Source of the DNA: Candidatus Latescibacterota bacterium | Lineage (GTDB): Bacteria > Latescibacterota > UBA2968 > GCA-2709665 | NCBI GenBank assembly: GCA_965248435.1 | Contig: OZ252100.1 | Location: forward strand, 2,304,001-2,368,000 | Direction: 5' to 3' | DNA: 64,000 nt | Shown here: piece after piece, positions 34,515-53,790 of the stretch | Layout of the letters: the number at the start of each line of letters is the position of its first letter | Numbering within the stretch: the stretch's first letter is position 1 | Made by a program: the position numbers and the translations under genes | The notes under the pieces: model-generated | What the model saw: only the letters and a program-made list of their open reading frames with translations | Databases searched by the model: none | What the model was told of the DNA's origin: nothing

Positions 34515-35765
34515 TCAATGTCGAAGCTTCCTCATCACCAGCACCGCGTTGTGACCGCCAAATCCAAAGGAGTTGTTCATCGCGATCTCGACAGGCATCT
34601 CTCGGGCCTGATTCGGCACATAGTCCAGGTCGCACTCTGGATCGGGATGTTCGTAGTTCACAGTCGGAGGAACGCAACTGTCCCTTATGGCCAGAAGGCA
34701 GGCGATCGTCTCTATCGCACCTGATGCACCGAGCAGATGGCCCGTCATCGATTTTGTAGAACTCACGGCCACCTGCTTCGCCCGATCGCCAAAGACCGAT
34801 TTTATCGCCGCGGTTTCATTCTTGTCGCCAATATCCGTAGAGGTCCCGTGCGCGTTGATATAGTCCACATCCTCCGGACTCAGGCCGGCATTCCGGAGCG
34901 CCAGCGTCATGGCCCGCGCCCCACCCCTCCCGTCCGGTGCCATGGCCGTCTGGTGGTAGGCATCTGCGGTGTAGGCCGTGCCGACAATCTCTCCGTAGAT
35001 CGACGCATTCCTCTCGAGCGCGTGCCCGAGTTCCTCCAGCACGATCCCTCCGGCCCCTTCGCCCAACACGAATCCGTCTCTCTCTGCATCGAACGGGCGG
35101 CTGGCGAGCTCGGGTTCGTCGTTTCGTGTAGAGAGCGCCTTCATGGACGCGAAACCGCCCAGGGCAAGGCGACTGACCGCGGCTTCCGCTCCCCCCGTTA
35201 TCATGATATCGGCTTCTCCGTAGCGAATTTCACGAAAAGCGTTCCCGATTGCGTGACCAGCCGAGGAGCACGCGGATACCGTAGCGTAGTTCGGACCCCG
35301 GGCGCCCAGCGAGATCGAGATCTGTCCAGAGGTCATATCAGCGATCATCATCGTGATGAAATATGGGCTGATTCGCCTTGGGCCCTTTTCCATCAAGGCC
35401 GTGTGCTGATCCTCCAGGCTCAGAATCCCTCCGATGCCCGATCCAAAAATGACGCCGACCCGATCTGGATCCTCCGTCTCGATGTCCAGCCCGGAGTCTT
35501 CCACGGCCATATTTGCAGCAGATACCGCATACTGGGTGCAGGGATCGTTCCGGCGGGCCTCCTTTTTCGTCATCCCGAAGTCTTCCGGATCGAACCCCTC
35601 TAGTTCGGCCCCTATCTTGACGCGAAATTCTGATGTATCGAACCGTTGGATCGGGGCGACACCGCTCACACCGGCCCGCAGGGCATCCCAGAACGCAGTT
35701 GTGGACATCCCGTTCGGGGCCAACGTACCCAGGCCTGTAGCGACCACTCTTCGAGTCTTGTCCAC
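34515..35765 (-). CDS. fabF: beta-ketoacyl-ACP synthase II
   Basis: SACSS catalytic Cys, YINAHGTST, KSMTGHLLGA and NSFGFGGHN motifs. Confidence 0.97.
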   Translation of the reverse strand: MDKTRRVVATGLGTLAPNGMSTTAFWDALRAGVSGVAPIQRFDTSEFRVKIGAELEGFDPEDFGMTKKEARRNDPCTQYAVSAANMAVEDSGLDIETEDPDRVGVIFGSGIGGILSLEDQHTALMEKGPRRISPYFITMMIADMTSGQISISLGARGPNYATVSACSSAGHAIGNAFREIRYGEADIMITGGAEAAVSRLALGGFASMKALSTRNDEPELASRPFDAERDGFVLGEGAGGIVLEELGHALERNASIYGEIVGTAYTADAYHQTAMAPDGRGGARAMTLALRNAGLSPEDVDYINAHGTSTDIGDKNETAAIKSVFGDRAKQVAVSSTKSMTGHLLGASGAIETIACLLAIRDSCVPPTVNYEHPDPECDLDYVPNQAREMPVEIAMNNSFGFGGHNAVLVMRKLRH

Positions 35766-35828
35766 AGATCTATCCGCTAGAAGATGTAAGCCAATCTTCC
35801 GCCCGTTTGGTCAACCCGCTTCGGTGAT

Positions 35829-36068
35829 CTACTCACCCAAGCGTTTTTTCAGATAGTCCGTCGCGTCGTTGACCGTTTCAAGCTTCTCCGCATCCTCGTC
35901 GGGAATCTCTAAATCGAATTCCTCTTCGAACGCCATCACCAGCTCGACGGTATCCAGCGAATCTGCACCCAGATCGTCGATAAAATGGGCGTCAGCCGTC
36001 ACACTATCCGCATCGACACCGAGCTGATCGACAATCAGGTCAACCACTTTCTGTTGAACGTCGGCCAT
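35829..36068 (-). CDS. acpP: acyl carrier protein
   Basis: [20 protein letters not shown]. Confidence 0.98.
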
Positions 36069-36080
36069 TGCATCCCTCCG

Positions 36081-36827
36081 TTACATCACCATGCCGCCAT
36101 CCACCACCAGCACTTGCCCGGTGATGTAGACGGCATCATCTGAAACCAGAAAGGCGACAGCAGCTGCGACATCTTCCGGCCTTCCGAAGACGCCCAGCGG
36201 GATCTGTGCGAGGAGTTTGTCCTTTACATCTGTACTTAAATCTGACGTCATTTCAGTTGGGATGAAGCCGGGAGCGACCACGTTTGCCGTGATGCCGCGC
36301 CCCGCCAGTTCCCTAGCTACGGTCTTCGTGAGCCCGATCAGACCCGATTTGGAGGCCGTGTAGTTGATCTGGCCCGGATTTCCAACCAGCCCCGTGACGG
36401 ATGAAACCGTCACGATCCGGCCACTGCGGGCGCGCATCATCGCTCGCGCCGCGGCCTTGATGCAGAGAAAGGCCCCTTTCAGGTTAACGTCCAAAACGAC
36501 ATCCCAGTCCGCCTCCTTCATCCGCATCAACAGCGCATCACGCGTGACACCCGCGTTGCTGACGAGGATGTCAACTCTGCCCCAGCTGTCCAGCACAGTC
36601 TTGAAAAGCGTCTCCACTCCGGCGGGATCTGAAACGTCCGCCTGTAACCCGAGTGCGCGCCGCCCCAGACTTTCGATCTGCTCCGCGACCCCCTTTGCGG
36701 CCTCCACGCTCTTACTGGCGCAGACCGCCACATCAGCCCCTTCACCCGCCAGACGCAGCGCAACGGCCTCTCCGATCCCCCGCGACCCTCCCGTCACGAC
36801 AGCCGTCTTGCCTTCGAGGCGACTCAC
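36081..36827 (-). CDS. fabG: 3-oxoacyl-ACP reductase
   Basis: TGGSRGIG, NAGVTRD and YTASK motifs; GTG start overlaps the fabD stop. Confidence 0.96.
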   Translation of the reverse strand: MSRLEGKTAVVTGGSRGIGEAVALRLAGEGADVAVCASKSVEAAKGVAEQIESLGRRALGLQADVSDPAGVETLFKTVLDSWGRVDILVSNAGVTRDALLMRMKEADWDVVLDVNLKGAFLCIKAAARAMMRARSGRIVTVSSVTGLVGNPGQINYTASKSGLIGLTKTVARELAGRGITANVVAPGFIPTEMTSDLSTDVKDKLLAQIPLGVFGRPEDVAAAVAFLVSDDAVYITGQVLVVDGGMVM

Positions 36828-37744
36828 CCCGCAACCTCCTCGATCTCCTCGAGGGTTCCTGCGCCTGAAACCGGCAGCTTGCGATCGATCCTCCGCATCA
36901 GCCCTTGCAAAACGCTGCCTGGGCCGACCTCGATCGCGCGGTCGATCCCCTCTGAAATCAAGCGTTTGATACTGTCCGTCCACTTGACGGGTGAAACTAC
37001 CTGTTCGAGAAGAAGGCGCTTTAGCTGATCTGGATCCTGCGTCGGTTCGGCCGTCACATTGGGGATCACGGGCACACGCGCCGGAGAAAATGCGATCGTT
37101 TCCAGGACACCGGAAAGCGGCTCAACCGCCGGCTCCATCAGGGCCGAATGAAAAGCCCCGCCGACAGGGAGTTCGATGCACCGTTTTGCACCCCTCGCGG
37201 GGGCCTCTTCCAAGATCCGATCAATCCCCGCCCGATCACCCGAGAGGACCACCTGACCGGGACAGTTGTAGTTCGCCGGTGAGACCACGCCTGCATCGCA
37301 AACCGATTCGCATAGTTCGCCGATCTCCTTTTCAGAAAGTCCGAAAACTGCGGCCATCTTTCCGGGTCGGCCCTCTCCCGCCGCCTGCATCGCCTTTCCC
37401 CTGATGCCCACAACCCGGAGCCCGTCTTCGAGGGAGATCACACCGGCGGCCACCAGTGCCCCAATCTCTCCAACGCTGTGTCCCGACACGATGTCCGGAC
37501 GAATCCCCTTTCCTTCGAGCATGCCCAGGACGGCCAGGCTGTGTGTGAAAACTGCCGGCTGCGTGACCGACGTCCGTTTCAAAGCGGCTTCAGGACCGCT
37601 GAAGCATAACGACTTCAGTCCGATTCCCAGAATCTCATCGGCCAGATCGAACACGTCCCGGGCCGCTTCCGAAGCGGCGTAGAGGTCCTGCCCCATCCCC
37701 ACGTACTGCGAAGCCTGCCCGGGGAACAAAAAAGCCAAAGGCAT
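36824..37744 (-). CDS. fabD: malonyl-CoA:ACP transacylase
   Basis: FPGQASQ, GHSVGE and GAFHS motifs. Confidence 0.96.
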   Translation of the reverse strand: MPLAFLFPGQASQYVGMGQDLYAASEAARDVFDLADEILGIGLKSLCFSGPEAALKRTSVTQPAVFTHSLAVLGMLEGKGIRPDIVSGHSVGEIGALVAAGVISLEDGLRVVGIRGKAMQAAGEGRPGKMAAVFGLSEKEIGELCESVCDAGVVSPANYNCPGQVVLSGDRAGIDRILEEAPARGAKRCIELPVGGAFHSALMEPAVEPLSGVLETIAFSPARVPVIPNVTAEPTQDPDQLKRLLLEQVVSPVKWTDSIKRLISEGIDRAIEVGPGSVLQGLMRRIDRKLPVSGAGTLEEIEEVAG

Positions 37745-37787
37745 AGGCTGGGACTAATATCCAAAGGCCAAAGGTTCGGTCCCCACG

Positions 37788-38783
37788 CTAATAGGCCCAC
37801 CTCAGAAGGGCGCTTCCCCAGGTGAATCCCGCCCCCGCACTCGCCACAAGAACCTGATCCCCCCTGCTTACGCGCCCCCCCTCCACAGCATCGGAAAGCG
37901 CGATCGGAATCGTCCCGCACGTCGTATTCGCGAACCGATCGATGTCGATCAACACCTTGTCCTCCGGCAGGTTCAATTTCCGAATACTCGCATCTATGAT
38001 GCGTTTGTTGGCCTGATGCGGGAGGAACAACGCAATGTCTTCACCCGTAAGCCCGTTTCGTTCAAGGAGGTCTGCGGATACCGAGGCCATGCTATTCGTA
38101 GCAAACTTGAACACTTCGCGCCCATCCTGACGCACGTAATGCATCCTTTTGTCTACCGTTTCGTGGCTGGCCGGATGAAGGCTGCCTCCTCCTGGCTGAG
38201 AGAGGTACTTCCCACCCGAGCCGTCGACCTTGAAGATGAAGTCTTGTATACCCTCGCCGTCCTCTCCGGGTTCCAGGAGTACGGCACCTGCGCCATCCCC
38301 GAAAAGCACGCACGTGGACCTGTCTGTGTAGTCGACAATGCTGCTCATCTTATCGGCGCCAATCACGACCACTCGCTTGTGTGCACCCGATTCGACAAAC
38401 TGACAGCCCACGATGAGCGCGTAGAGAAACCCGCTGCAGGCGGCGGACAGGTCGAACCCCCATGCATTCTTCGCCCCGACGTTTTCCTGAACAAGGCACG
38501 CCGTTGCGGGGAACATCATGTCGGGCGTTACGGTAGCGACGATGATCAGGTCAACATCTTTTGCATCCAAACCCTTCTGCTCGAGCAGGTTTTCCAGGGC
38601 CCGCGTCGCAAGGAAGGAGGTTCCCAAACCGTCATCAAGGATCCGTCGCTCCCGAATACCGGTTCGAGACTGGATCCATTCGTCCGTCGTATCTACCATC
38701 TTTTCCAGATCGGCATTCGTCAATTTGCGGTCTGGGAGGTAGCGGGAAACGCCGGTTATTGAAGCGCGGAAACGCACACCCAT
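37788..38783 (-). CDS. fabH: beta-ketoacyl-ACP synthase III
   Basis: AACSGF, LFGDGAGA, PHQANKRI and GAGFTWG motifs. Confidence 0.96.
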   Translation of the reverse strand: MGVRFRASITGVSRYLPDRKLTNADLEKMVDTTDEWIQSRTGIRERRILDDGLGTSFLATRALENLLEQKGLDAKDVDLIIVATVTPDMMFPATACLVQENVGAKNAWGFDLSAACSGFLYALIVGCQFVESGAHKRVVVIGADKMSSIVDYTDRSTCVLFGDGAGAVLLEPGEDGEGIQDFIFKVDGSGGKYLSQPGGGSLHPASHETVDKRMHYVRQDGREVFKFATNSMASVSADLLERNGLTGEDIALFLPHQANKRIIDASIRKLNLPEDKVLIDIDRFANTTCGTIPIALSDAVEGGRVSRGDQVLVASAGAGFTWGSALLRWAY

Positions 38784-38802
38784 CTCGTCAGGACCTCATC
38801 GC

Positions 38803-38985
38803 TTAAACACCTTCGCCCTCGATGACTTCCTGACCTTTGTAATGACCGCAGCTGGGACAAACCCGGTGGGGCTGCCGCTGCTGACCACAGTTCGGACAAT
38901 CTGAGAACGTCGGCACCTGAAGCTTCCAGTGCGACCGTCGCTTGCCTGTCCTCGAATTGGAGCTTCTGCGCTTTGGATGTGCCAT
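38803..38985 (-). CDS. rpmF: 50S ribosomal protein L32
   Basis: MAHPKRR...CPNCG...HRVCPSCGHY. Confidence 0.96.
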   Translation of the reverse strand: MAHPKRRSSNSRTGKRRSHWKLQVPTFSDCPNCGQQRQPHRVCPSCGHYKGQEVIEGEGV

Positions 38986-38999
38986 TCAAAACCCCTTTT

Positions 39000-39509
39000 C
39001 TATTCGCTCGCCAAGCCCTGCAGCGCTTCCCAGCGCGGATCGGTCTTCTCCTCTTTGCAGTCGCAGCGACCCAGGTTAAAATTCTGACCGCACGACGGAC
39101 ATAGTCCCGCGCACGACTCCCGGCAGACGGGATTCATAGGAATTTCGAGAAGGATGTAATCCTTCACTTGCTCCCCAATATCGATCTTTCCCATCGCGTC
39201 ATCCAGCCAAATGATCGCCTCGTCTTCATCCCCTTCCATGGTTCTCGGGCGACCCTTCTGGAGGATGAACTTGAATCCACCTGTCATCCGCTTGGTAAAA
39301 GGCTCAAGGCACCTTGCGCACGACATCCCGAGCTCGAATTCCGTCTCCCCGGAGACCGTGAGGGACTCCCCCATCTTGAAAACGGTCATGTGAGTTTGAA
39401 TCGGCTTTGAGAAGTCGAACTCCTCATTCTCGATATGGAGCTCTTCCGGCGTCTCTGACCATTCGGACTCGTTGAGACCTTCCTCGAGTGCGTTCAAATC
39501 GACTTCCAT
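39000..39509 (-). CDS. yceD: YceD/DUF177 family protein
   Basis: CARCL and CRESCAGLCPSCG...DPRWEAL motifs; immediately upstream of rpmF; start MEVDLN. Confidence 0.9.
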   Translation of the reverse strand: MEVDLNALEEGLNESEWSETPEELHIENEEFDFSKPIQTHMTVFKMGESLTVSGETEFELGMSCARCLEPFTKRMTGGFKFILQKGRPRTMEGDEDEAIIWLDDAMGKIDIGEQVKDYILLEIPMNPVCRESCAGLCPSCGQNFNLGRCDCKEEKTDPRWEALQGLASE

Positions 39510-39519
39510 ACCACACTCC

Positions 39520-39957
39520 CTAAGAAGAAACAGCGCCTTCTCCGAAAAAGAACGTAATCTCTTGTGCCCCGTTTTCGGGTGAATCGGACGCGTGCACCGC
39601 ATTCTCCTGAACGTTGCTGCCAAATGCCTTTCGGATCGTTCCCTCCGCTGCCCGAGTCGGATCCGTTGCCCCGACGACCTCCCTGAGGGTGGATACGGCA
39701 TCCTCACGCTCGAGCACTGTTGGGACAGAAGGACCTGAAGTCATGAAATCGATCAAGTCGGGATAGAACGGGCGCTCCCGGTGCACGGCATAAAATTCCG
39801 CCGCCTGTGCACGCGTCAGGGTCATCATTTCCGTCCGAACGATCCTGAATCCCTTTTCTTCAACGAACTTGAGGATCTCCCCGACAATGTTTCGAGCCAC
39901 TGCATCCGGTTTGACGATCAACAGTGTTCTGGCTGCCACAATGATTCCAGTGGACAC
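39520..39957 (-). CDS. ndk: nucleoside diphosphate kinase
   Basis: TLLIVKPDA, FMTSGP, GTIR and NAVHASDS motifs. Confidence 0.96.
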   Translation of the reverse strand: MSTGIIVAARTLLIVKPDAVARNIVGEILKFVEEKGFRIVRTEMMTLTRAQAAEFYAVHRERPFYPDLIDFMTSGPSVPTVLEREDAVSTLREVVGATDPTRAAEGTIRKAFGSNVQENAVHASDSPENGAQEITFFFGEGAVSS

Positions 39958-40352: not shown

Positions 40353-41966
40353 ATGAGCTCGATCTCGCCTGCAATTAACGGAAAAGTCTTCTTCGTGACC
40401 GGGGCCACCGGTTTTGTGGCAAAGGGGCTGGTCGAAAAGCTCCTTCGCGACGTCCCCGGCGTGAGGCGACTCTACCTCCTGATTCGATCGGGAAAGCACG
40501 GTTCTGCGGAGCAGCGACTGGACCGTGAGGTGATCAACTCCAACGTATTTTCCGAGCTGAGGAAACGGCTGGGCCCGAAATTTGAAGAGACGGTTCGACC
40601 GAAACTGGTCGCCGTCGCGGGCGATCTATCCAAGGACCGGATGGGGCTGACCCCAGACGACTACTCCAAACTGCTGCAAGAAGTAGACATCGTCATCAAT
40701 TGCGCAGCGACGGTTGTCTTCGATGAGCGCCTGGACCACGCACTCGAGCTGAATACCCTTGGGCCCCGCCGCATCCTGGAATTCACGAAATCCTGCCGGG
40801 ATGCGATTCTCGTTCACGTATCCACGGCCTATGTCAATAGTCAGCAGACAGGTCACATCCCGGAGAGACTGCTCCCTCCCGGTCAGAAGATCCAAAGAAT
40901 CTTGGGGGACGGGCATTCTCCGGACTTCGATTTGGAGACAGAGATCGAATCGATCCGGCAATTCCGCGATGAGGTCATGTCAGACTCAGAACAACCCGAT
41001 CTCGAAGGCCAATTTCTTCGAACCCTCCAGCAACAGGACAGAGGCAAACGGGTGACCAAGTATCGACGAACGCATCAACTCGATGCCTTGCGCAAACGCT
41101 GGATAACACAAAGACTCGTGAAAGAAGGAATGTCGCGCGCTCGTAGGCTGGGATGGAATGATACCTATACCTTTACGAAGTCCATGGGCGAACAGATCAT
41201 CGCGAAATACCGCGGCAGTCTCCCGACCGCCATCGTGAGGCCTTCGATCATCGAGAGCAGCCTCTGCGACCCGGAGCCTGGGTGGTTGGATGGGTTGAAG
41301 GTTGCCGATCCCCTCTTCGTGCATTACGGTAAGGGCCGACTGGACCACTTTCCCGCGAATCCGGACATCGTGCTCGACGTCGTACCCGTCGACATCGTGA
41401 CAAACGCAATCATCGCTATCCTGCCTCAGGTTAGAAAGCAAAAGGACATGCAGGTCTATCAGGTCGCGACGAGTTCCGTCAATCCGTTGAAGCTTCGAGA
41501 CCTCGCAGACTGGGTCTACGAATACTTTAGGAAGAGCCCGCTGCAGGACAGGGACGGGAACCCAATTCAGGTGCACAAGTGGCGGTTTCCGAGCCACAAG
41601 GAATTTCGGCGGCAGGTTCGCCTGAAATACCAGGTCCCCCTCACCACGATGCTGTGGCTGACGAACCACGTGCCGATCTTCCCGTCCAGCATGAAACGAA
41701 AGGTTTCAATTTTTGAGGCCACGTTCCAACGTCTCCTTTCACTCATCGAAATCTATGGTCCCTACACCACGCTCGATTGCCGATTCGAAACGGAAAACAT
41801 CCGGCGCCTCTACCAAAAGCTGGACCCGGAAGATCGAAAGGTCTTCAACTTCGACGTCTCGAGCATCCGATGGCGAGAGTATGTGCAGGATATACACCTC
41901 CCGGGACTGAAGCGCCACATACTGAAGGACGGTTCGGAGCAGGAACATGTGGAGCATAGTGCATAA
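40353..41966 (+). CDS. alcohol-forming fatty acyl-CoA/ACP reductase (FAR; NAD-binding-4 plus sterile domain)
   Basis: TGATGFVAK, NCAATVVFDE, HVSTAYVN, YTFTK, IVRPSIIES..PEPGW, DVVPVD and a C-terminal FNFDVSSIRW...HLPGL. Confidence 0.93.
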   Translation: MSSISPAINGKVFFVTGATGFVAKGLVEKLLRDVPGVRRLYLLIRSGKHGSAEQRLDREVINSNVFSELRKRLGPKFEETVRPKLVAVAGDLSKDRMGLTPDDYSKLLQEVDIVINCAATVVFDERLDHALELNTLGPRRILEFTKSCRDAILVHVSTAYVNSQQTGHIPERLLPPGQKIQRILGDGHSPDFDLETEIESIRQFRDEVMSDSEQPDLEGQFLRTLQQQDRGKRVTKYRRTHQLDALRKRWITQRLVKEGMSRARRLGWNDTYTFTKSMGEQIIAKYRGSLPTAIVRPSIIESSLCDPEPGWLDGLKVADPLFVHYGKGRLDHFPANPDIVLDVVPVDIVTNAIIAILPQVRKQKDMQVYQVATSSVNPLKLRDLADWVYEYFRKSPLQDRDGNPIQVHKWRFPSHKEFRRQVRLKYQVPLTTMLWLTNHVPIFPSSMKRKVSIFEATFQRLLSLIEIYGPYTTLDCRFETENIRRLYQKLDPEDRKVFNFDVSSIRWREYVQDIHLPGLKRHILKDGSEQEHVEHSA

Positions 41967-43936
41967 TGGACGCACGCTATACCGGTTCAACGCCCATTCT
42001 CGAGCTTCACGTCAACCAGCTGCTCGAGAATCCAGAGCGCATGCTGGATCTCTATGACCGGTCCGCCCGGGAACTGATCGAGGTCGGACGTCTGGAAGGG
42101 TATTTCGAAGGTTGGGATCTTGGCCGCCTGAAATGGCCGTCCAGTCGGCGGGATACCGGGCCTGCAGACATCTCCGAACTTCAGAAGCGTGCAGAGCTTG
42201 TAAATAAAATCTTTCTCGGCGTACCGAAGCTCAGAGGTGAGCGGCTTTCGGATGCCTACTCGCCCTTCAATCGTCTAACCCCTGCTTATCACGAGGGGAA
42301 CCGTCTCTACCTCCAGCTCAAACACGACTTCCTTGCTCGAGGCGCCGGCAACGAGCAGAATTATCTCCAGCTCTACCAGGCGGTCTATGTGGAGGCCCTG
42401 GCTAAGGGAGGCGACCTGTTTTCTCCAGACGCGGGTGAGGCGGCGCTGTCCGAGGCCAGGATCTTTCGCGCACCCCTTTCCCACGCGCAGCCTGTAGCAG
42501 AGGACCTGCCAACCGCAGTGTTGGACGAAGATCCGAGGTGGGAAGAGACCTATTCCTGTAAACTGGATGGCCATCCGATCGAGGCCTCGTTGAGGGATCT
42601 GCTGAAGAAGGTGGCGGAAAGGGCCCTCGACTACGTCAACGCCGGCGGGTTGCTCGCCACCCACTTCAACACCTACAACAACCTCGGCTGGTTTGGCAGT
42701 TCAATCTGGAAAGTGATCGTGGATGTGGACCTTTCTCGTCATCAGATTCAGATCCAACGACCCGGTTCGAATCCCCACGACCTCGCCCATATCCGGAACG
42801 ACATTCATCTCGGTATCGCGATGCTCGTGGAGTTCCTGCAGGCTCATCGCGAAGACCCGGCCAGGCTGAAACCTGAAAAATACTGGTATGGCCAGGACTA
42901 CAGCTATCTCACTCGAGATATGCTGGATCTAGCCCAGCGGCTGATTCATGGGATGAACGAGCAAATCGATGGCAAGGAAAAACTCCAACTTCCACCTCTC
43001 CTGGCGGGCAGTCCCAGCGGGCGGTTTCTCGAATATCCTCACGTAGGCAGGCAGGCTCAGCCTTCACCCTGGAATCGAACCCTCAAGCTCTTGCGATGGG
43101 CGGGGGTCTCCTGGAAAGTGGGCAGACGTCGTGCGAGGCTGGCCAAATCGCAATTGAGCGAGGACCTGCGTTGGCCGCGTGCCTGGCAGGAATGGGTCGC
43201 CTGGTCCGATGCCACGCTTCGCATTTTCGGCATCCAGGTCAAAGTGAGTCTGGATCCGAGCTTTCATTCTGTCGCCAAAGACCTCGACCTGACCCGCGGA
43301 AAGCAGAAGGTGCTCTTTCTACCCACGCACCAATCTCTCCTCGACCACCCCATTATGTATCGGGTCCTGACCTCCCCGGAGCTGATGTCGGCGATGGGTT
43401 GGCGAGAGCCGGTGTCCTGCGCCTTCCTCGCGCGAACGGGGCTCTCCAAGGCTGGAGTGCGGATCGGCAGGTTCGATATGACCATGTTCGGCGTCTCGTC
43501 GGAGAAGTTTGACCGCATGTTCGAGGAACTGGACGGATACGTGACGCGCGAGCGTCTGGAGGGAACCGGTCCCACGGCCCTCAGGCTGGTGGAGGCCTTG
43601 AAGAAACGCCCTGGCGTCATCTATCCCATGGCGACCGTCGGCGCTTTCGATGTCCAGCTCTTTCCGCTACAGCACGCGATGTTCGCCCAACTGCCGCAGG
43701 ATGTAATCATCATTCCCATCGCCTTTCGGGGTGCACACGCGCTCTGGCCCAAGTGTCCTAAGGGAAACCTCCAGATCAATCCGGGCCTCGTCGAAGCCGT
43801 GGTTGCACCCCCGATGCTCGGAGAAACCACGCTGCTGCCCAAGCGCAGATCGCTGCGCATTCAGCTTGAGGCGGCGACACTCTTTCAGGCAGTGCACATT
43901 ACTTCCTTGTTGAATCCTGAACCATCTGCAGACTAG
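41966..43936 (+). CDS. glycerolipid acyltransferase-family protein with a large N-terminal domain of unknown function (candidate DHAP acyltransferase)
   Basis: C-terminal LFLPTHQSLLDH (HxxxxD block I), FLAR, IYPMAT and VIIIPIAF. Translationally coupled to FAR (TAATG). Confidence 0.7.
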   Translation: MDARYTGSTPILELHVNQLLENPERMLDLYDRSARELIEVGRLEGYFEGWDLGRLKWPSSRRDTGPADISELQKRAELVNKIFLGVPKLRGERLSDAYSPFNRLTPAYHEGNRLYLQLKHDFLARGAGNEQNYLQLYQAVYVEALAKGGDLFSPDAGEAALSEARIFRAPLSHAQPVAEDLPTAVLDEDPRWEETYSCKLDGHPIEASLRDLLKKVAERALDYVNAGGLLATHFNTYNNLGWFGSSIWKVIVDVDLSRHQIQIQRPGSNPHDLAHIRNDIHLGIAMLVEFLQAHREDPARLKPEKYWYGQDYSYLTRDMLDLAQRLIHGMNEQIDGKEKLQLPPLLAGSPSGRFLEYPHVGRQAQPSPWNRTLKLLRWAGVSWKVGRRRARLAKSQLSEDLRWPRAWQEWVAWSDATLRIFGIQVKVSLDPSFHSVAKDLDLTRGKQKVLFLPTHQSLLDHPIMYRVLTSPELMSAMGWREPVSCAFLARTGLSKAGVRIGRFDMTMFGVSSEKFDRMFEELDGYVTRERLEGTGPTALRLVEALKKRPGVIYPMATVGAFDVQLFPLQHAMFAQLPQDVIIIPIAFRGAHALWPKCPKGNLQINPGLVEAVVAPPMLGETTLLPKRRSLRIQLEAATLFQAVHITSLLNPEPSAD

Positions 43937-43948
43937 ATAGGATCTCCT

Positions 43949-45799
43949 GTGTCTACGGCTGATGTCATAACGCTTGCAGGCATCCTGGTCCTGGCCGCTG
44001 CCTTTTTCATCCTCGTAAAGAGGCGGGGTCGCGCTCAGCCTCTGGATGTGTCCTACGACCCGTCCGAAGCGCAGAGGTATCATCACAGATGGGGTTACGT
44101 GGACACCCGATTCGAGTTTGACGGACCCAGGAGCGTAAGGGTCACCGGAAGCAGGTATCCCCTCTCGGGTTTTAGCATGCCTTCCTTTGTCCCCTTCATA
44201 GAGGAAGTCCTGGACGTTCAGATTCGACCAGAAGATCTGAACGTGGAAAATAGACCTCACGAGATTCGGGCCCCGGCTCTGAACGAGGCCTTTATGGCCT
44301 CGATCGAGACCGAATTCAAGGAGGATCAGTACTCCATCGATCCCGGAGACAGGTTAGTCCACAGTCACGGACAACTGAGCGTAGACGAGGTCTATCAGAT
44401 CCTGTATGGAACATCCGTGAAGAGGGTGGTCGACCTGGTCCTCTATCCCGAAAAGGAAGAGGATATAGGCACCATCATCCAGTTGGCAGACGAACAGAGT
44501 GTATGTCTGATGCCTTACGGTGGCGGTACGAACGTAAGCGGCGCGCTGGCTTGCCCTTCTGCAGAAGATCGAATGATCGTATCGGTGGATATGAGAAGGA
44601 TGAGCCGAATCTTGTGGGTCGATGAAGAAAACTTTCAGGCCTGCGTCGAGGCGGGAATCACCGGCAAACAGCTTGAAAAGGAGTTGGACGCGAAGGGATA
44701 TACCTCGGGGCACGATCCGGACAGCATCGAGTTTTCAACGCTGGGTGGATGGATCTCAACGAACGCCAGTGGGATGAAGAAGAACAGATACGGCAACATC
44801 GAAGACATCGTGCTCGAAGCCACGCTGATCACACCCACCGGAAACGTTGAAACCCTGGCCGTGACGCCAAGAAGTTCTATCGGCTCACAGCCCAGGTCTC
44901 TTTTGTTCGGAAGCGAGGGGAATTTCGGAATCATCACCAAGGCCGTCATCAAGATCCACGCGAGACCCAGGGTGCGAAAATACGGCTCACTGGTGTTCCC
45001 GACATTCGAGAGAGGCGTCAGCTTCTTGAAGGAATTGCGCACACAGGGGATATTGCCCGCGAGCATTCGACTCGTCAGCAATAACGAATTCAGATTCGGA
45101 CAGGCGCTCAAACCCGAACCCACCTTTATGAAGGGGATCGTAAACGGACTTCAGCGGTTCTTTCTTCTTCGAATCCTGGGGTTTGATTCGAAAAAGATGG
45201 TTGCATGTACCATCTTGATGGAAGGATCAAGAGCAGAAGTGTCTCAACAGGAACGATCGATTTTCAGCATCGCCAAGAAGCATAAGGGTAAAAGCGGTGG
45301 TGCAGCCAACGGAAAGAGGGGCTACACGCTCACCTTTGGTATCGCCTACATCAGAGACTTCTGTAATGAGTGCCACGTCCTGGGTGAAACGTTTGAGACC
45401 TCCGTCCCGTGGAACAGAATCCACCACGTCTGCCAGGGCGTGGAAAGGGGATTGGTCGAAGAAGCCAAGAAAAGGAACGTTCCGGGGAAACCCTATCTGT
45501 CCTACCGTGTGACTCAGACCTATCACACCGGCGTATGCATCTACTTCACGATGGGTTTCTATGGAAAAGGGATGGAGAAGCCGACGGACGTTTTTCACGA
45601 GATAGAAGGTCGTTTGCGGCAGATCATTCTGGATAACGGGGGTTCTTTGTCTCACCACCACGGCGTCGGCAAGGTTCGACAGCCGTTTTTGTCTCAGGTC
45701 CACTCCGAAAACAGCATCAATGTCCTGCGCCAATCCAAAAAGGCGATGGATCCGAACAACACGTTCGGTATCAGAAACGGCGTGTTTGGTGACACCTGA
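43949..45799 (+). CDS. alkyl-dihydroxyacetonephosphate synthase (AGPS)-like FAD oxidoreductase
   Basis: RLVHSHGQ, PYGGGTNVS, GHDPDSIEFSTLGGW, ASGMKKNRYGNIED, GSEGNFGIIT, GYTLTFGIAYIRD, ETFETSVPW, RVTQTY..GVCIYF and GGSLSHHHGVGK; N-terminal TM helix. Confidence 0.9.
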   Translation: MSTADVITLAGILVLAAAFFILVKRRGRAQPLDVSYDPSEAQRYHHRWGYVDTRFEFDGPRSVRVTGSRYPLSGFSMPSFVPFIEEVLDVQIRPEDLNVENRPHEIRAPALNEAFMASIETEFKEDQYSIDPGDRLVHSHGQLSVDEVYQILYGTSVKRVVDLVLYPEKEEDIGTIIQLADEQSVCLMPYGGGTNVSGALACPSAEDRMIVSVDMRRMSRILWVDEENFQACVEAGITGKQLEKELDAKGYTSGHDPDSIEFSTLGGWISTNASGMKKNRYGNIEDIVLEATLITPTGNVETLAVTPRSSIGSQPRSLLFGSEGNFGIITKAVIKIHARPRVRKYGSLVFPTFERGVSFLKELRTQGILPASIRLVSNNEFRFGQALKPEPTFMKGIVNGLQRFFLLRILGFDSKKMVACTILMEGSRAEVSQQERSIFSIAKKHKGKSGGAANGKRGYTLTFGIAYIRDFCNECHVLGETFETSVPWNRIHHVCQGVERGLVEEAKKRNVPGKPYLSYRVTQTYHTGVCIYFTMGFYGKGMEKPTDVFHEIEGRLRQIILDNGGSLSHHHGVGKVRQPFLSQVHSENSINVLRQSKKAMDPNNTFGIRNGVFGDT

Positions 45800-51255: not shown

Positions 51256-53790
51256 ATGAGACTTCACTTCCTCGGGGGCGCCGACGAAATCGGTGCTTCG
51301 TGCACACTCGTCGAGATGGATGGCCATCGGGTCCTCGTAGATGCAGGGATCCGGATGGGCGCATCCCCCGGCGCGCACCTCCCCAACTTCTCCGCCCTGG
51401 ATGAGTTCGGGCCGCCGGATGAAGTCCTCGTCACCCACGCCCATACAGATCACACGGGCGCGCTTCCCGTCCTCGTCGCGGGACTCCCTCCTGACGTTCC
51501 CATCCGAATGACCGCACCGACTGCCGTGATCACCCGGGTCCTGCTGGGTGACGCCTTGAAGATCATGGAAAAGCGAGGCGAGCGCGACGGCGAACTCCCC
51601 CTCTATCCCCCTGAGGCAGTCGACGTCTGCCTGAGCAGAATCACGAGTGTACCCACGCTCGCGACGCTTCCGATCTGCGAAGGAAAGCTGAGTGCCACGT
51701 GGATCCCTGCGGGACACATCCTCGGCGCGGCCTCGATCTACATCGAAGGTCAAACGGAGGGGCTCTTGATGACCGGGGACGTCTCGGTGTCCGAGCAACA
51801 GACCATTCCGGGCATGATCGTACCTCAGTGCAGGCCGGACGTCGTCGTGATGGAGTCCACCTACGGAGACCGACAGCACGCAGACCGCAGCCAGCAGGAG
51901 ACATCTCTCGCCTTGCGCGTGGCCGAAGCGGTGGAATCCGGGGGTAAAGTCCTGATCCCGGCGTTCGCCGTGGGCCGCGCCCAGGAAGTGATTCTCATCC
52001 TATCGGGCGCGATGCGCGACGGCTTGGTCCAACCCTTTCCCCTTTACGTAGATGGGATGGTCCGCTCGGTGAACGCCGTTTACGCCGGATTTTCGGACGA
52101 ACTGGCCCCGAGACTGCGCCGGCGAATTCAAAAAGGAGACGATTCCTTCACTTCAGGGTTCGTCACCACGGTGGCTGACCACACGGATCGGGATCGCATC
52201 CTCAAGGGACCCCCCTGCTGCATCGTGGCGAGCTCCGGGATGCTCATCGGGGGCGCGTCCAGCTTCTATGCGGAGCGCCTCTCGGATCAACCCGAGAACC
52301 TGATCGCGATAACCGGCTACCAGGACGAGGAGTCTCCTGGCCGCGCGCTTTTGGCGCTCGCGAAGACGAAGGACAAGAATCGGACCCTCACCCTGAACGG
52401 CCGAAGAATTTCTGTCGAATGCAGCGTCGAAACCTATTCCCTCTCCGCACACGCCGACGGCGGACAGCTCGCCGCTCTGGCCAGACGCCTTTCTCCAAGG
52501 TCGGTCCATCTCGTCCACGGCAGCCCCGAAGCGCGAGCTGCCCTTGCCTCGATGATGGACCTCCACCTCCCCGAAGGCGTCCACCTTCCCGGAAACGGAA
52601 CCACAAGCGAAAGTGCGGGACAGACTGCGATAGGCACGCTACGCTACGGCCATCTCGTCTCCGTGAGAGGTCTCCTGGACGGAGGTGCAGCCGACAACAC
52701 GACGCTCGACAGTGCGCGCGGTTACCTGATGGAGGCGGGCGCAAAGGGCCCCTTTCGCGTCCAGGACCTTGCCGAAGTCTGTTACGGAACGGACCAGCTT
52801 CACCAAGTCGACCTCGAAGCCTTCAGAGAACTTCTGGAAAGTTCTCAGAGATCGTTCTCGCCGGACCGCCGGCGTCCCTACCCCTTCCACATTGCGCCCG
52901 ATCCAGGCGAAGGGCGGACCTCGGGTCCGATGGAGATGAATCAGGCCAGGGACAAAATCCAGGACGCCTTCCCCCCTGAGGCGGGTCTGTTCAAATGCAG
53001 CGCCTTCGTCGAGGACCATACCTACGAACTCGCCTTTCACTTTCCGGACGTCGTTTCTTCTCGCTACGGAGACCGCATCCAGGAACTCGAATCAGAAACC
53101 GGATGGAAGATCACGCTGCGCAAGACGCCTCACCAGGAAAGAGTCTTCCAGGAGGCCCGATCGGCGGTACCGGAAGGAGTCTCACCCACAAAGCCACCCG
53201 CGCTGCGCCTCGATGAGCGAAGCGTATCCGTCGAAGTGGTCGTACCCCGGGAACTCGAAGCGGACTGGGAGGGTCTCGCAGAGGATGCGAGTCGCTCCTT
53301 TGAGCAGACGACGGGCTATCGGCTGATGCTCCGCCGTCCAGGGGAGCCTGCATCAGGAACCGAAGTGGGCGCGCCTGAAGGAGCCCTCGAAATCAATCAC
53401 GCCTACGCCGAAATCCGAAGCGCCTTCCGTCATGAAAGCCACGCCCCTAACAGGATCGGCCTCAAGTCCGGGAGTGACGAATCTTACCTCGAAGTCTCGT
53501 TTATCTCACCCGCCGTTGGCGCCCGCTACCGCGAACGGCTTGACGCACTCTCATCGAGCATCGGCTGGCCGATCGCCGTCCGCGAATCGGCCCACCAGGA
53601 ACAGATCGCCGGCGAGGCCTTGAAGATCACGCCGGACGCGTGTCAGGCGCAGGGCGCACCCAGGCTCTTCGTGAGCGAGCAGAAGGTGGTCGTTCACGTG
53701 CTCCAGACCCCCGAGCCGGACGAACAGTCGGCCCTTCAACAGGCCTTCCTGGAGGCTACGGGCTTCCAAATCTCGTGGGAGACCCGATAA
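51256..53790 (+). CDS. beta-CASP metallo-beta-lactamase nuclease (CPSF73/Ysh1-like) with a duplicated C-terminal extension
   Basis: GGADEIGASC, THAHTDHTG, AGHILGA, MESTYG, PAFAVGRAQE, SSGML, GYQDEESPGR, SAHAD and VHG motifs. Confidence 0.9.
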   Translation: MRLHFLGGADEIGASCTLVEMDGHRVLVDAGIRMGASPGAHLPNFSALDEFGPPDEVLVTHAHTDHTGALPVLVAGLPPDVPIRMTAPTAVITRVLLGDALKIMEKRGERDGELPLYPPEAVDVCLSRITSVPTLATLPICEGKLSATWIPAGHILGAASIYIEGQTEGLLMTGDVSVSEQQTIPGMIVPQCRPDVVVMESTYGDRQHADRSQQETSLALRVAEAVESGGKVLIPAFAVGRAQEVILILSGAMRDGLVQPFPLYVDGMVRSVNAVYAGFSDELAPRLRRRIQKGDDSFTSGFVTTVADHTDRDRILKGPPCCIVASSGMLIGGASSFYAERLSDQPENLIAITGYQDEESPGRALLALAKTKDKNRTLTLNGRRISVECSVETYSLSAHADGGQLAALARRLSPRSVHLVHGSPEARAALASMMDLHLPEGVHLPGNGTTSESAGQTAIGTLRYGHLVSVRGLLDGGAADNTTLDSARGYLMEAGAKGPFRVQDLAEVCYGTDQLHQVDLEAFRELLESSQRSFSPDRRRPYPFHIAPDPGEGRTSGPMEMNQARDKIQDAFPPEAGLFKCSAFVEDHTYELAFHFPDVVSSRYGDRIQELESETGWKITLRKTPHQERVFQEARSAVPEGVSPTKPPALRLDERSVSVEVVVPRELEADWEGLAEDASRSFEQTTGYRLMLRRPGEPASGTEVGAPEGALEINHAYAEIRSAFRHESHAPNRIGLKSGSDESYLEVSFISPAVGARYRERLDALSSSIGWPIAVRESAHQEQIAGEALKITPDACQAQGAPRLFVSEQKVVVHVLQTPEPDEQSALQQAFLEATGFQISWETR

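Follow-up and report, generated by a model that had tools for sequence, protein, structure and literature searches.

A PlsC-fold acyltransferase family predicted to open glycerolipid synthesis from dihydroxyacetone phosphate in a class of Latescibacterota

Phospholipid synthesis in bacteria is thought to start from glycerol-3-phosphate (G3P), via either PlsX/PlsY or PlsB, and the ether lipid enzyme alkyl-dihydroxyacetone phosphate synthase (AGPS) requires acyl-dihydroxyacetone phosphate (acyl-DHAP). The closest described systems are those of Myxococcus xanthus. One of them, the operon MXAN_1676-1674, encodes AGPS, a fused fatty acyl reductase (FAR) and acyltransferase (AT) termed FARAT (MXAN_1675), and an NAD-dependent enzyme (PMC9131029, in the portion available). 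The other, elbA-E, includes ElbB, a HAD-IB hydrolase, ElbC (MXAN_1529), annotated with a lactate racemase (LarA) domain/DUF2088 (PMC11980068), and ElbD, of FAR-ACS-ACP-AT architecture; in the accessible parts of 10.1101/2025.10.10.681575 and PMC9131029, the elb operon contains no AGPS candidate and ElbC is assigned no role. The subject of this work is an acyltransferase gene in a 64,000-nucleotide stretch of a Latescibacterota genome (contig OZ252100.1, positions 2,304,001 to 2,368,000; “the window” refers to this whole stretch), where it is the second gene of an operon in the order FAR, acyltransferase, AGPS and short-chain dehydrogenase/reductase (SDR). Its product is quite probably the housekeeping first (sn-1) acyltransferase of its class of uncultured bacteria, acting on DHAP and representing the only point of glycerolipid entry, an activity that, like its acceptor and its donor, is predicted from fold, motifs, gene order and distribution. 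The gene and the regions of its product are as follows.

41966..43936, forward strand: acyltransferase gene; PlsC-fold protein of 656 aa, proposed acyl:DHAP sn-1 acyltransferase
41966..43060, forward strand: N-terminal all-alpha domain, residues ~1-365; two 56-residue helices, net charge -10, no clear fold match
42881..42928, forward strand: conserved motif of the N-terminal domain, residues 306-321; Y308, Y312, T316, R317, D318 and D321 invariant, preceded by invariant H294
43061..43225, forward strand: two basic, Trp-rich helices, residues ~366-420; net charge +8, aligning with the N-terminal part of Thermotoga maritima PlsC
43328..43345, forward strand: block I catalytic HxxxxD, H455-D460 (HQSLLD, residues 455-460), from motif and alignment
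43622..43639, forward strand: block III of non-canonical sequence, Y553-V558, aligned to FPEGTR; family-wide loss of Glu and Arg

The distribution of this gene was surveyed in 140 genomes of the phylum that are at least 85% complete, 116 of them from the window's class and 24 from others. The acyltransferase is present in 116/116 class genomes as against 2/24 of the others, in one full copy each, with the exceptions of a gene split over two contigs (G083), an extra fragment (G069) and three matches that include a stop. PlsY and GpsA, whose genes adjoin each other, display the opposite pattern, each being found in 0/116 class genomes and 21/24 others, as does PlsX (1/116 versus 22/24), while the GPAT_C domain of PlsB and GNPAT (PF19277) was detected in none of the 140 genomes, the E. 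coli control being positive. FAR occurs in 114 and AGPS in 110 of the 116 class genomes. In G066 (1 contig, 99% complete) and G005 (2 contigs, 99%), a short PlsC is the only gene with a PF01553 match besides the acyltransferase. Five genomes were also tested for neighboring steps: CdsA is present in all five, and neither a glycerol kinase over cut-off nor a GlpD domain was found in any, so that no source of G3P is evident in them.

In the mechanism that we propose, the acyltransferase would work at the membrane surface, where a His455/Asp460 dyad would activate a hydroxyl of DHAP, and the acyl chain would move from a thioester donor to DHAP, yielding acyl-DHAP. The fatty alcohol would be provided by FAR, AGPS would exchange acyl for alkyl, SDR would reduce the ketone, and ordinary PlsC and CdsA would complete the phospholipid. 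The acyltransferase would in this manner stand in for PlsX/PlsY/GpsA, being GNPAT-like in action without being a GNPAT. As to the donor, the adjacent fab cluster and the missing PlsX would fit acyl-acyl carrier protein (acyl-ACP), but in three loci an acyl-CoA-ligase-like gene lies ahead of FAR. The same predicted activities are united in one operon as in MXAN_1676-1674, but the latter is a minor route in M. xanthus, whereas the operon described here is apparently the sole phospholipid entry, employs an acyltransferase of another family and carries a separate FAR.

The reading frame 41966-43936 (+) is open throughout its 656 codons, and its ATG shares one base with the stop codon of FAR (TAATG). 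Sequence searches identified 124 homologs (E<=0.001), of which the 120 listed measure 630-686 aa and share 42-96% identity with the acyltransferase over 95-100% of its length; homologs this numerous, near-full-length and compact in length indicate that the gene is not a chance reading frame. A HMMER search of 1.84 billion representatives gave 50 matches, apparently all members of the family or fragments thereof, and relatives that carry names stem mostly from metagenome-assembled genomes (MAGs) of Latescibacterota/Handelsmanbacteria. No Pfam or NCBIfam family was recognized in the sequence, and PDB searches yielded no match by sequence and two chance matches, at E 1.1, by profile. PF01553 does not match the protein itself, matches relatives marginally (19.2 bits and 24.1 bits, for a cut-off of 23) and is carried by 2/120 listed homologs. 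Five genomes contain longer open frames, of 808-1098 aa; considered as potential fusion proteins, these were rejected by eye as upstream read-through in GC-rich DNA. The most divergent member, P0126 (34% identity, 607 aa), sits on a long branch and retains 47/69 conserved positions of the N-terminal domain, including H294, Y308, Y312, R317, D318 and D321.

An AlphaFold2 model built from 121 sequences (pLDDT 91.2, pTM 0.93) was matched by Foldseek to T. maritima PlsC (5kym; E 2.3e-4). Model residues 367-654 superimpose on this structure with Z 17.8 and rmsd 3.1 over 223 aligned residues, and the two proteins share the HxxxxD motif, the block IV Pro and the N-terminal helices; they differ in that identity is only 13% and that the acyltransferase lacks the block III Glu/Arg, carries an extra 365-aa domain and coexists with a canonical PlsC. 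Helices at the N-terminus of T. maritima PlsC serve as a membrane anchor. The structural match starts with model residue 367 on PlsC chain residue 2, placing residues 366-420 within the acyltransferase domain, and by analogy these helices probably anchor the enzyme to the membrane surface in a monotopic manner; a Kyte-Doolittle scan of the protein revealed no 19-residue window above 1.2. The next matches are human GPAT1 (8e50; Z 13.7, rmsd 3.6, 222 aligned), chain 7zkq_T from an assembly intermediate of complex I (Z 12.3), and plastid GPAT (1iuq, 1k30; Z 12.0, rmsd 5.0, 244 aligned). Plastid GPAT resembles the acyltransferase in being an sn-1 enzyme with an N-terminal helical bundle and a non-standard motif III (PMC4280512, in the part accessible), but the match covers residues 362-655 only, and the 365-aa domain finds no counterpart in the alignment. 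With GNPAT/DHAPAT, PlsB, GPAT1 and FARAT, MXAN_1675 included, the acyltransferase shares the proposed reaction, the position between FAR and AGPS and a large accessory helical domain, and with GPAT1 the acyltransferase core; in contrast to them, it is devoid of GPAT_C, its chain ending at the acyltransferase domain, lacks PEGTR and is not fused to FAR, and its helical domain is N-terminal, the GPAT1 alignment stopping short of it. Lacking both GPAT_C and PEGTR, it forms a family of its own within the PlsC-fold superfamily, outside GNPAT. An earlier note on this DNA had considered the protein as a new DHAP-acyltransferase subfamily; the DHAP role is well supported by genomics, but it does not follow from block III, nor does the protein form a subfamily of PlsB/GNPAT, given the lack of GPAT_C and a fold nearer to PlsC.

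Within the catalytic blocks, the HQSLLD motif that the note had described as intact was indeed located at residues 455-460; His455 is kept in 121/121 aligned sequences, and position 460 is Asp in 101 and Glu in 20. A block II Arg candidate, R530, is present in 84/121 sequences, in a register taken from the profile alignment, and the block IV Pro, P584, in 121/121. For block III, the register was established by profile-profile comparison (hhalign) with six PlsC-type domains from the surveyed genomes, which places Y553-P554-M555-A556-T557-V558 on F-P-E-G-T-R with a probability of 60% and E 8.5e-5. The same note had stated that IYPMAT (residues 552-557) replaces FPEGTR without Glu-Gly, which holds for this protein; across the family, it is Glu (missing in 120 of 121 sequences) and Arg (missing in all 121) that are lost, whereas 95 sequences retain Gly and all 121 retain Thr. 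According to the available text of PMC4280512, AGPAT1 requires the Glu and Arg of block III, which are important in GPAT1 as well, and, there and in the accessible part of PMC6688108, the Arg is described as binding the acceptor phosphate in T. maritima PlsC. The former source also gives block III of GNPAT/DHAPAT as PEGT-R, and since GNPAT itself keeps this motif, the unusual block III cannot be read as a DHAP signature. Four basic residues are invariant in the family, namely R490, R588, H591 and R631, the first of which aligns with the PlsC Lys that follows block I; to judge from their conservation, they probably compensate for the lost Arg.

The N-terminal region has been described as an unassignable ~400 aa, or ~60% of the protein; no assignment was found here either, but its extent must be reduced to residues ~1-365 (55%), as the PlsC match starts at 367. 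This domain holds 23 polar residues conserved at >=95%, a count equal to that of the C-terminal half, and its invariant residues are R90, N239, H294, Y308, Y312, T316, R317, D318 and D321. Folded alone, it reaches a pLDDT of 89.8, and the structure prediction and Foldseek search proposed in the note matched the isolated domain to no known unrelated enzyme, or any other structure, at E<=0.001; its best VIA match is a designed helical filament (Z 9.9, rmsd 3.6, 138 aligned), in the range of generic helical bundles, and the ESM Atlas offered no usable match for residues 1-365. These negative searches fall short of proving a new fold. A profile search with the domain gave 8 matches of 172-629 aa, all family members or pieces of them, and the domain was encountered neither alone nor in another architecture, in a word-index search that covered lengths to 1148 aa.

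Four roles were considered for this domain. We consider it an even chance that it belongs integrally to the enzyme and completes a substrate or donor site, since it was not encountered on its own and a pTM of 0.93 for the whole chain suggests fixed packing. The idea that it constitutes a dock for acyl-ACP is less likely, with roughly one chance in a handful. Docking of AGPS, which the note had also put forward, is more improbable still as its main role, because ten genomes with no AGPS match keep the full-length protein with the domain intact; co-folding of residues 9-358 with AGPS residues 40-616 scored 0.00, a value that counts neither for nor against docking. In eight sequences from AGPS-negative genomes or elb-type contexts, 512/552 conserved positions of the N-terminal domain are kept, as compared to 500/512 in the C-terminal one. 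Motif changes near residues 297-320 in sequences from elb-type contexts were dismissed as clade traits, one locus (L008) having both the changes and AGPS. Lastly, the domain could be a second enzyme joined to a DHAP acyltransferase, for instance a thioesterase or an acyl-ACP transacylase supplying FAR as well as the acyltransferase domain, a reading that would overlap with the proposal made here for the C-terminal domain. Its 23 conserved polar residues and nine invariant ones would be in keeping with catalysis, and in elb-type clusters the gene occupies the place where ElbD has ACP and acyltransferase, yet the same residues could equally line an inter-domain interface, and a domain seen neither alone nor in another architecture makes a second enzyme rather unlikely.

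The operon and the gene cluster that lies next to it comprise the following genes.

40353..41966, forward strand: fatty acyl reductase, FAR1-type, 537 aa, with PF07993 and PF03015
43949..45799, forward strand: AGPS, 616 aa; E 4.8e-157 to PDB 4bby, HHH motif kept, N-terminal hydrophobic segment
45902..46717, forward strand: short-chain dehydrogenase/reductase, 271 aa; acyl/alkyl-DHAP reductase as predicted from context
34515..39957, reverse strand: ndk-yceD-rpmF-fabH-fabD-fabG-acpP-fabF cluster, divergent from the operon, with no plsX between rpmF and fabH

On the strength of its match to 4bby and its HHH motif, the AGPS of the window is a true AGPS. Its hydrophobic segment (43949-44030), which is followed by basic residues, is likely to be a membrane anchor, to judge from its composition; several relatives possess it as well, and others, such as L008 and L088, do not. 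The SDR follows AGPS in most loci, including those in which the AGPS-SDR pair stands apart, and matches no specific family. Gene names in the fab cluster are those we take the translations to indicate; fabH comes directly after rpmF (37788-38985), plsX missing from its usual place, and elsewhere in the same genome PF02504 gives one weak, sub-threshold match. Farther along the window, at 51256-53790, lies an 844-aa protein that, by its translation, is metallo-beta-lactamase/beta-CASP-like, with a long C-terminal extension made up of repeated-looking segments. Of 162 related loci, the best 80 were used for neighborhood counts, many of them being close kin and some being cut by contig ends: FAR adjoins the acyltransferase in 45/80 and AGPS in 37/80. 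In the six loci of family f4 with AGPS that were fetched, AGPS and SDR form a separate pair, and in f4 genomes FAR is often the front part of an ElbD-like protein of ~1400 aa. The window's own genome encodes two further acyltransferases. The first, a membrane acyltransferase of 445 aa (G000:C1:4674198-4675532; L082:661-1998), has a variant block III and motifs that appear to us to resemble those of yeast Sct1/Gpt2; it was discarded as a class-wide sn-1 enzyme due to its patchy occurrence (16/140 genomes). The second is a ~900-aa fusion of acyl-CoA ligase, ACP and acyltransferase (G000:C1:2776508-2779210; L083), either ElbD-like without FAR or Aas-like. In another locus (L081:41-2052), a canonical plsC is preceded by a reading frame whose translation apparently fuses pseudouridine synthase and cytidylate kinase.

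A number of observations weigh against entry from DHAP through this enzyme. In 35/80 loci, mostly of family f4, the acyltransferase lies among unrelated genes with no lipid neighbors found, and the ElbD-like protein of f4 possesses its own canonical acyltransferase domain (PEGTR). The loss of PlsY and GpsA may be a single event, their genes being neighbors, the class is a single lineage whose counts are non-independent, and sources of G3P were examined in five genomes only. Four genomes (G022, G140, G141 and G142) carry both the acyltransferase and PlsY-family matches, while G020 lacks the acyltransferase, PlsX, PlsY and GpsA alike, such that other solutions exist; the loss of the block III Glu/Arg could, moreover, mean a non-phosphorylated acceptor. 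In G020 (96% complete, 60 contigs), which is also devoid of GPAT_C, an elb cluster encodes a 1449-aa ElbD-like FAR-ACS-ACP-AT protein (L100:6507-10856), and ElbD may perform the first acylation there. Complete FAR-AT-AGPS-SDR units are found, with PlsY kept, in a Trueperaceae MAG (L045, genome G142) and in another Latescibacterota class (L088, genome G022), and were probably acquired by horizontal transfer as an add-on pathway.

Three other activities must be weighed against that of a DHAP acyltransferase. Yeast has acyltransferases that use both G3P and DHAP, and the present enzyme could likewise be a PlsB-like first acyltransferase that uses G3P mainly or equally, with acyl-DHAP for AGPS as a side product and G3P provided by an unrecognized enzyme; it does replace PlsX/PlsY, and FGGY-family kinases below the GlpK cut-off exist in 5/5 genomes. 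GpsA in 0/116 genomes, the GlpD domain in 0/5 and the steady supply of acyl-DHAP that AGPS needs in 110/116 nonetheless render this explanation improbable, at about one chance in eight. Slimmer yet are the odds of an sn-2 acyltransferase for alkyl-lyso-phosphatidic acid or other ether lysolipids, with another enzyme performing the first acylation: the nearest fold is that of PlsC, N-terminal helices included, and feature neighbors in the ESM Atlas are PlsC-like with a lead-level score of 0.86, but a canonical PlsC is already present, and no other sn-1 candidate was found in G005 and G066. A wax-ester synthase, or an acyltransferase for some other non-phosphorylated acceptor such as the alcohol made by FAR, is the least probable of the three, with very little likelihood; the phosphate-binding Arg is missing in 121/121 sequences and FAR is the most constant neighbor, yet a gene present in 116/116 genomes, and in essentially single copy, behaves like a core gene, the protein has further invariant basic residues, and the class would be left without a first acylation step.

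The DHAP acyltransferase proposed here can also be followed into genomes in which AGPS is missing. An AGPS match is absent from 7/118 acyltransferase-positive survey genomes, among them G059, where the acyltransferase lies at a contig end; in five of the seven, a recheck at E 1e-5 gave only partial matches of 25-31% to other flavoproteins, and 4/5 further genomes are likewise without AGPS. G005, G025 and G027 share the order (acyl-CoA ligase)-FAR-AT-HAD-Zn-dehydrogenase-Lar_N, with an acyl-CoA-ligase-like gene before FAR in G025 and G027 and a DAG-kinase-like gene at the end in 2/3, and in G140 and G141 the acyltransferase is similarly grouped with FAR, HAD, Zn-dehydrogenase and a Lar_N protein. 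The clustering of FAR, HAD and Lar_N in these five genomes is reminiscent of M. xanthus elbA-E; differences are the canonical acyltransferase domain (PEGTR) of ElbD and the Zn-dehydrogenase that elb-type clusters of Latescibacterota add. The module occurs at the following positions.

L085:14071-18612; L086:3531-8162; L087:10078-14325; L100:10857-15415; L116-L119: ElbC-like Lar_N protein plus Zn-dehydrogenase

Within the survey, the Lar_N protein and the Zn-dehydrogenase are found in the same 7/140 genomes, all of them without AGPS. When this relationship was used as a prediction, the Lar_N protein proved to be present in all four extra AGPS-negative genomes and absent from three AGPS-positive ones. 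Of 123 genomes with the acyltransferase in total, 112 have AGPS without Lar, 10 have Lar without AGPS, none has both and one (G059) has neither. LarC was tried as a discriminator and abandoned, being present in 5/5 genomes, including the window's own Lar-negative one, in which no ElbB/ElbC-like match was found. A comparison within one genus is provided by G027 and G026 (L008), whose acyltransferases are 84% identical and sisters on the protein tree (support 100): in G027 the acyltransferase is followed by HAD, alcohol dehydrogenase (ADH) and Lar genes, and G026 has AGPS and SDR with no ADH or Lar. The latter two genes (L008:7902-10483) have GC contents of 49.5% and 43.8%, lie between genes of 65-69% GC in an elb-type cluster, and look like a direct replacement. 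The AGPS in question shares 70% identity with its G126 counterpart (L093) but only 47-48% with the AGPS of the window, which suggests a second AGPS type, horizontally acquired.

The mutual exclusion with AGPS and the apparent G026/G027 swap make the Lar_N protein a candidate for ether bond formation. These data suggest that it could form the ether bond while the Zn-dehydrogenase would reduce the ketone, both routes starting from the product of the acyltransferase, although few independent events underlie this suggestion. They also point to ElbC as the enzyme that forms the ether in the elb route of myxobacteria, and as a candidate non-homologous ether synthase; against a strict exclusion, M. 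xanthus has both routes. In its widest form, the proposal would be that the whole class lacks G3P entry and makes all membrane lipids from acyl-DHAP; that the N-terminal domain represents a novel fold and harbors an active or donor-binding site of its own; that the acyltransferase feeds either AGPS and SDR or the ElbC-like LarA-domain protein and Zn-dehydrogenase; and that this LarA-domain protein is a non-homologous alkyl-DHAP synthase, probably dependent on a nickel pincer, and the missing ether enzyme of the myxobacterial and acidobacterial elb systems. We regard this complete picture as tentative, with the odds tilted against all of its parts holding at once.

In the supplements of PMC13012113, a GTDB survey, class UBA2968 appears in the tables for FAR and AGPS but is absent from those for GNPAT; for two contigs, the genes entered bear the numbers 108/110 and 59/61, and the skipped middle gene is, by gene order, probably a member of the acyltransferase family. 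A 2026 preprint (10.64898/2026.06.23.733905) reports agps and elbD matches in Latescibacterota, the acyltransferase being unnamed in the portion of its main text available, and the accessible parts of PMC13159169 and PMC11770544 contain nothing on the family. No description of the family, or of ElbC as an ether synthase, was found in the literature, and subscription papers or closed supplements could hold one. The acyltransferase family fills the gap left by the GTDB survey of 2026, in which UBA2968 has entries for FAR and AGPS and none for GNPAT. The exchange between AGPS plus SDR and the ElbC-like protein plus Zn-dehydrogenase offers a testable assignment for the AGPS-free ether-bond step, missing from the elb pathway since 2014. 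If the proposal made here is correct, a class without PlsX/PlsY/PlsB that starts from DHAP would represent a third entry route into phospholipid synthesis, and ether-rich membranes would be predicted in abundant sponge and marine Latescibacterota.

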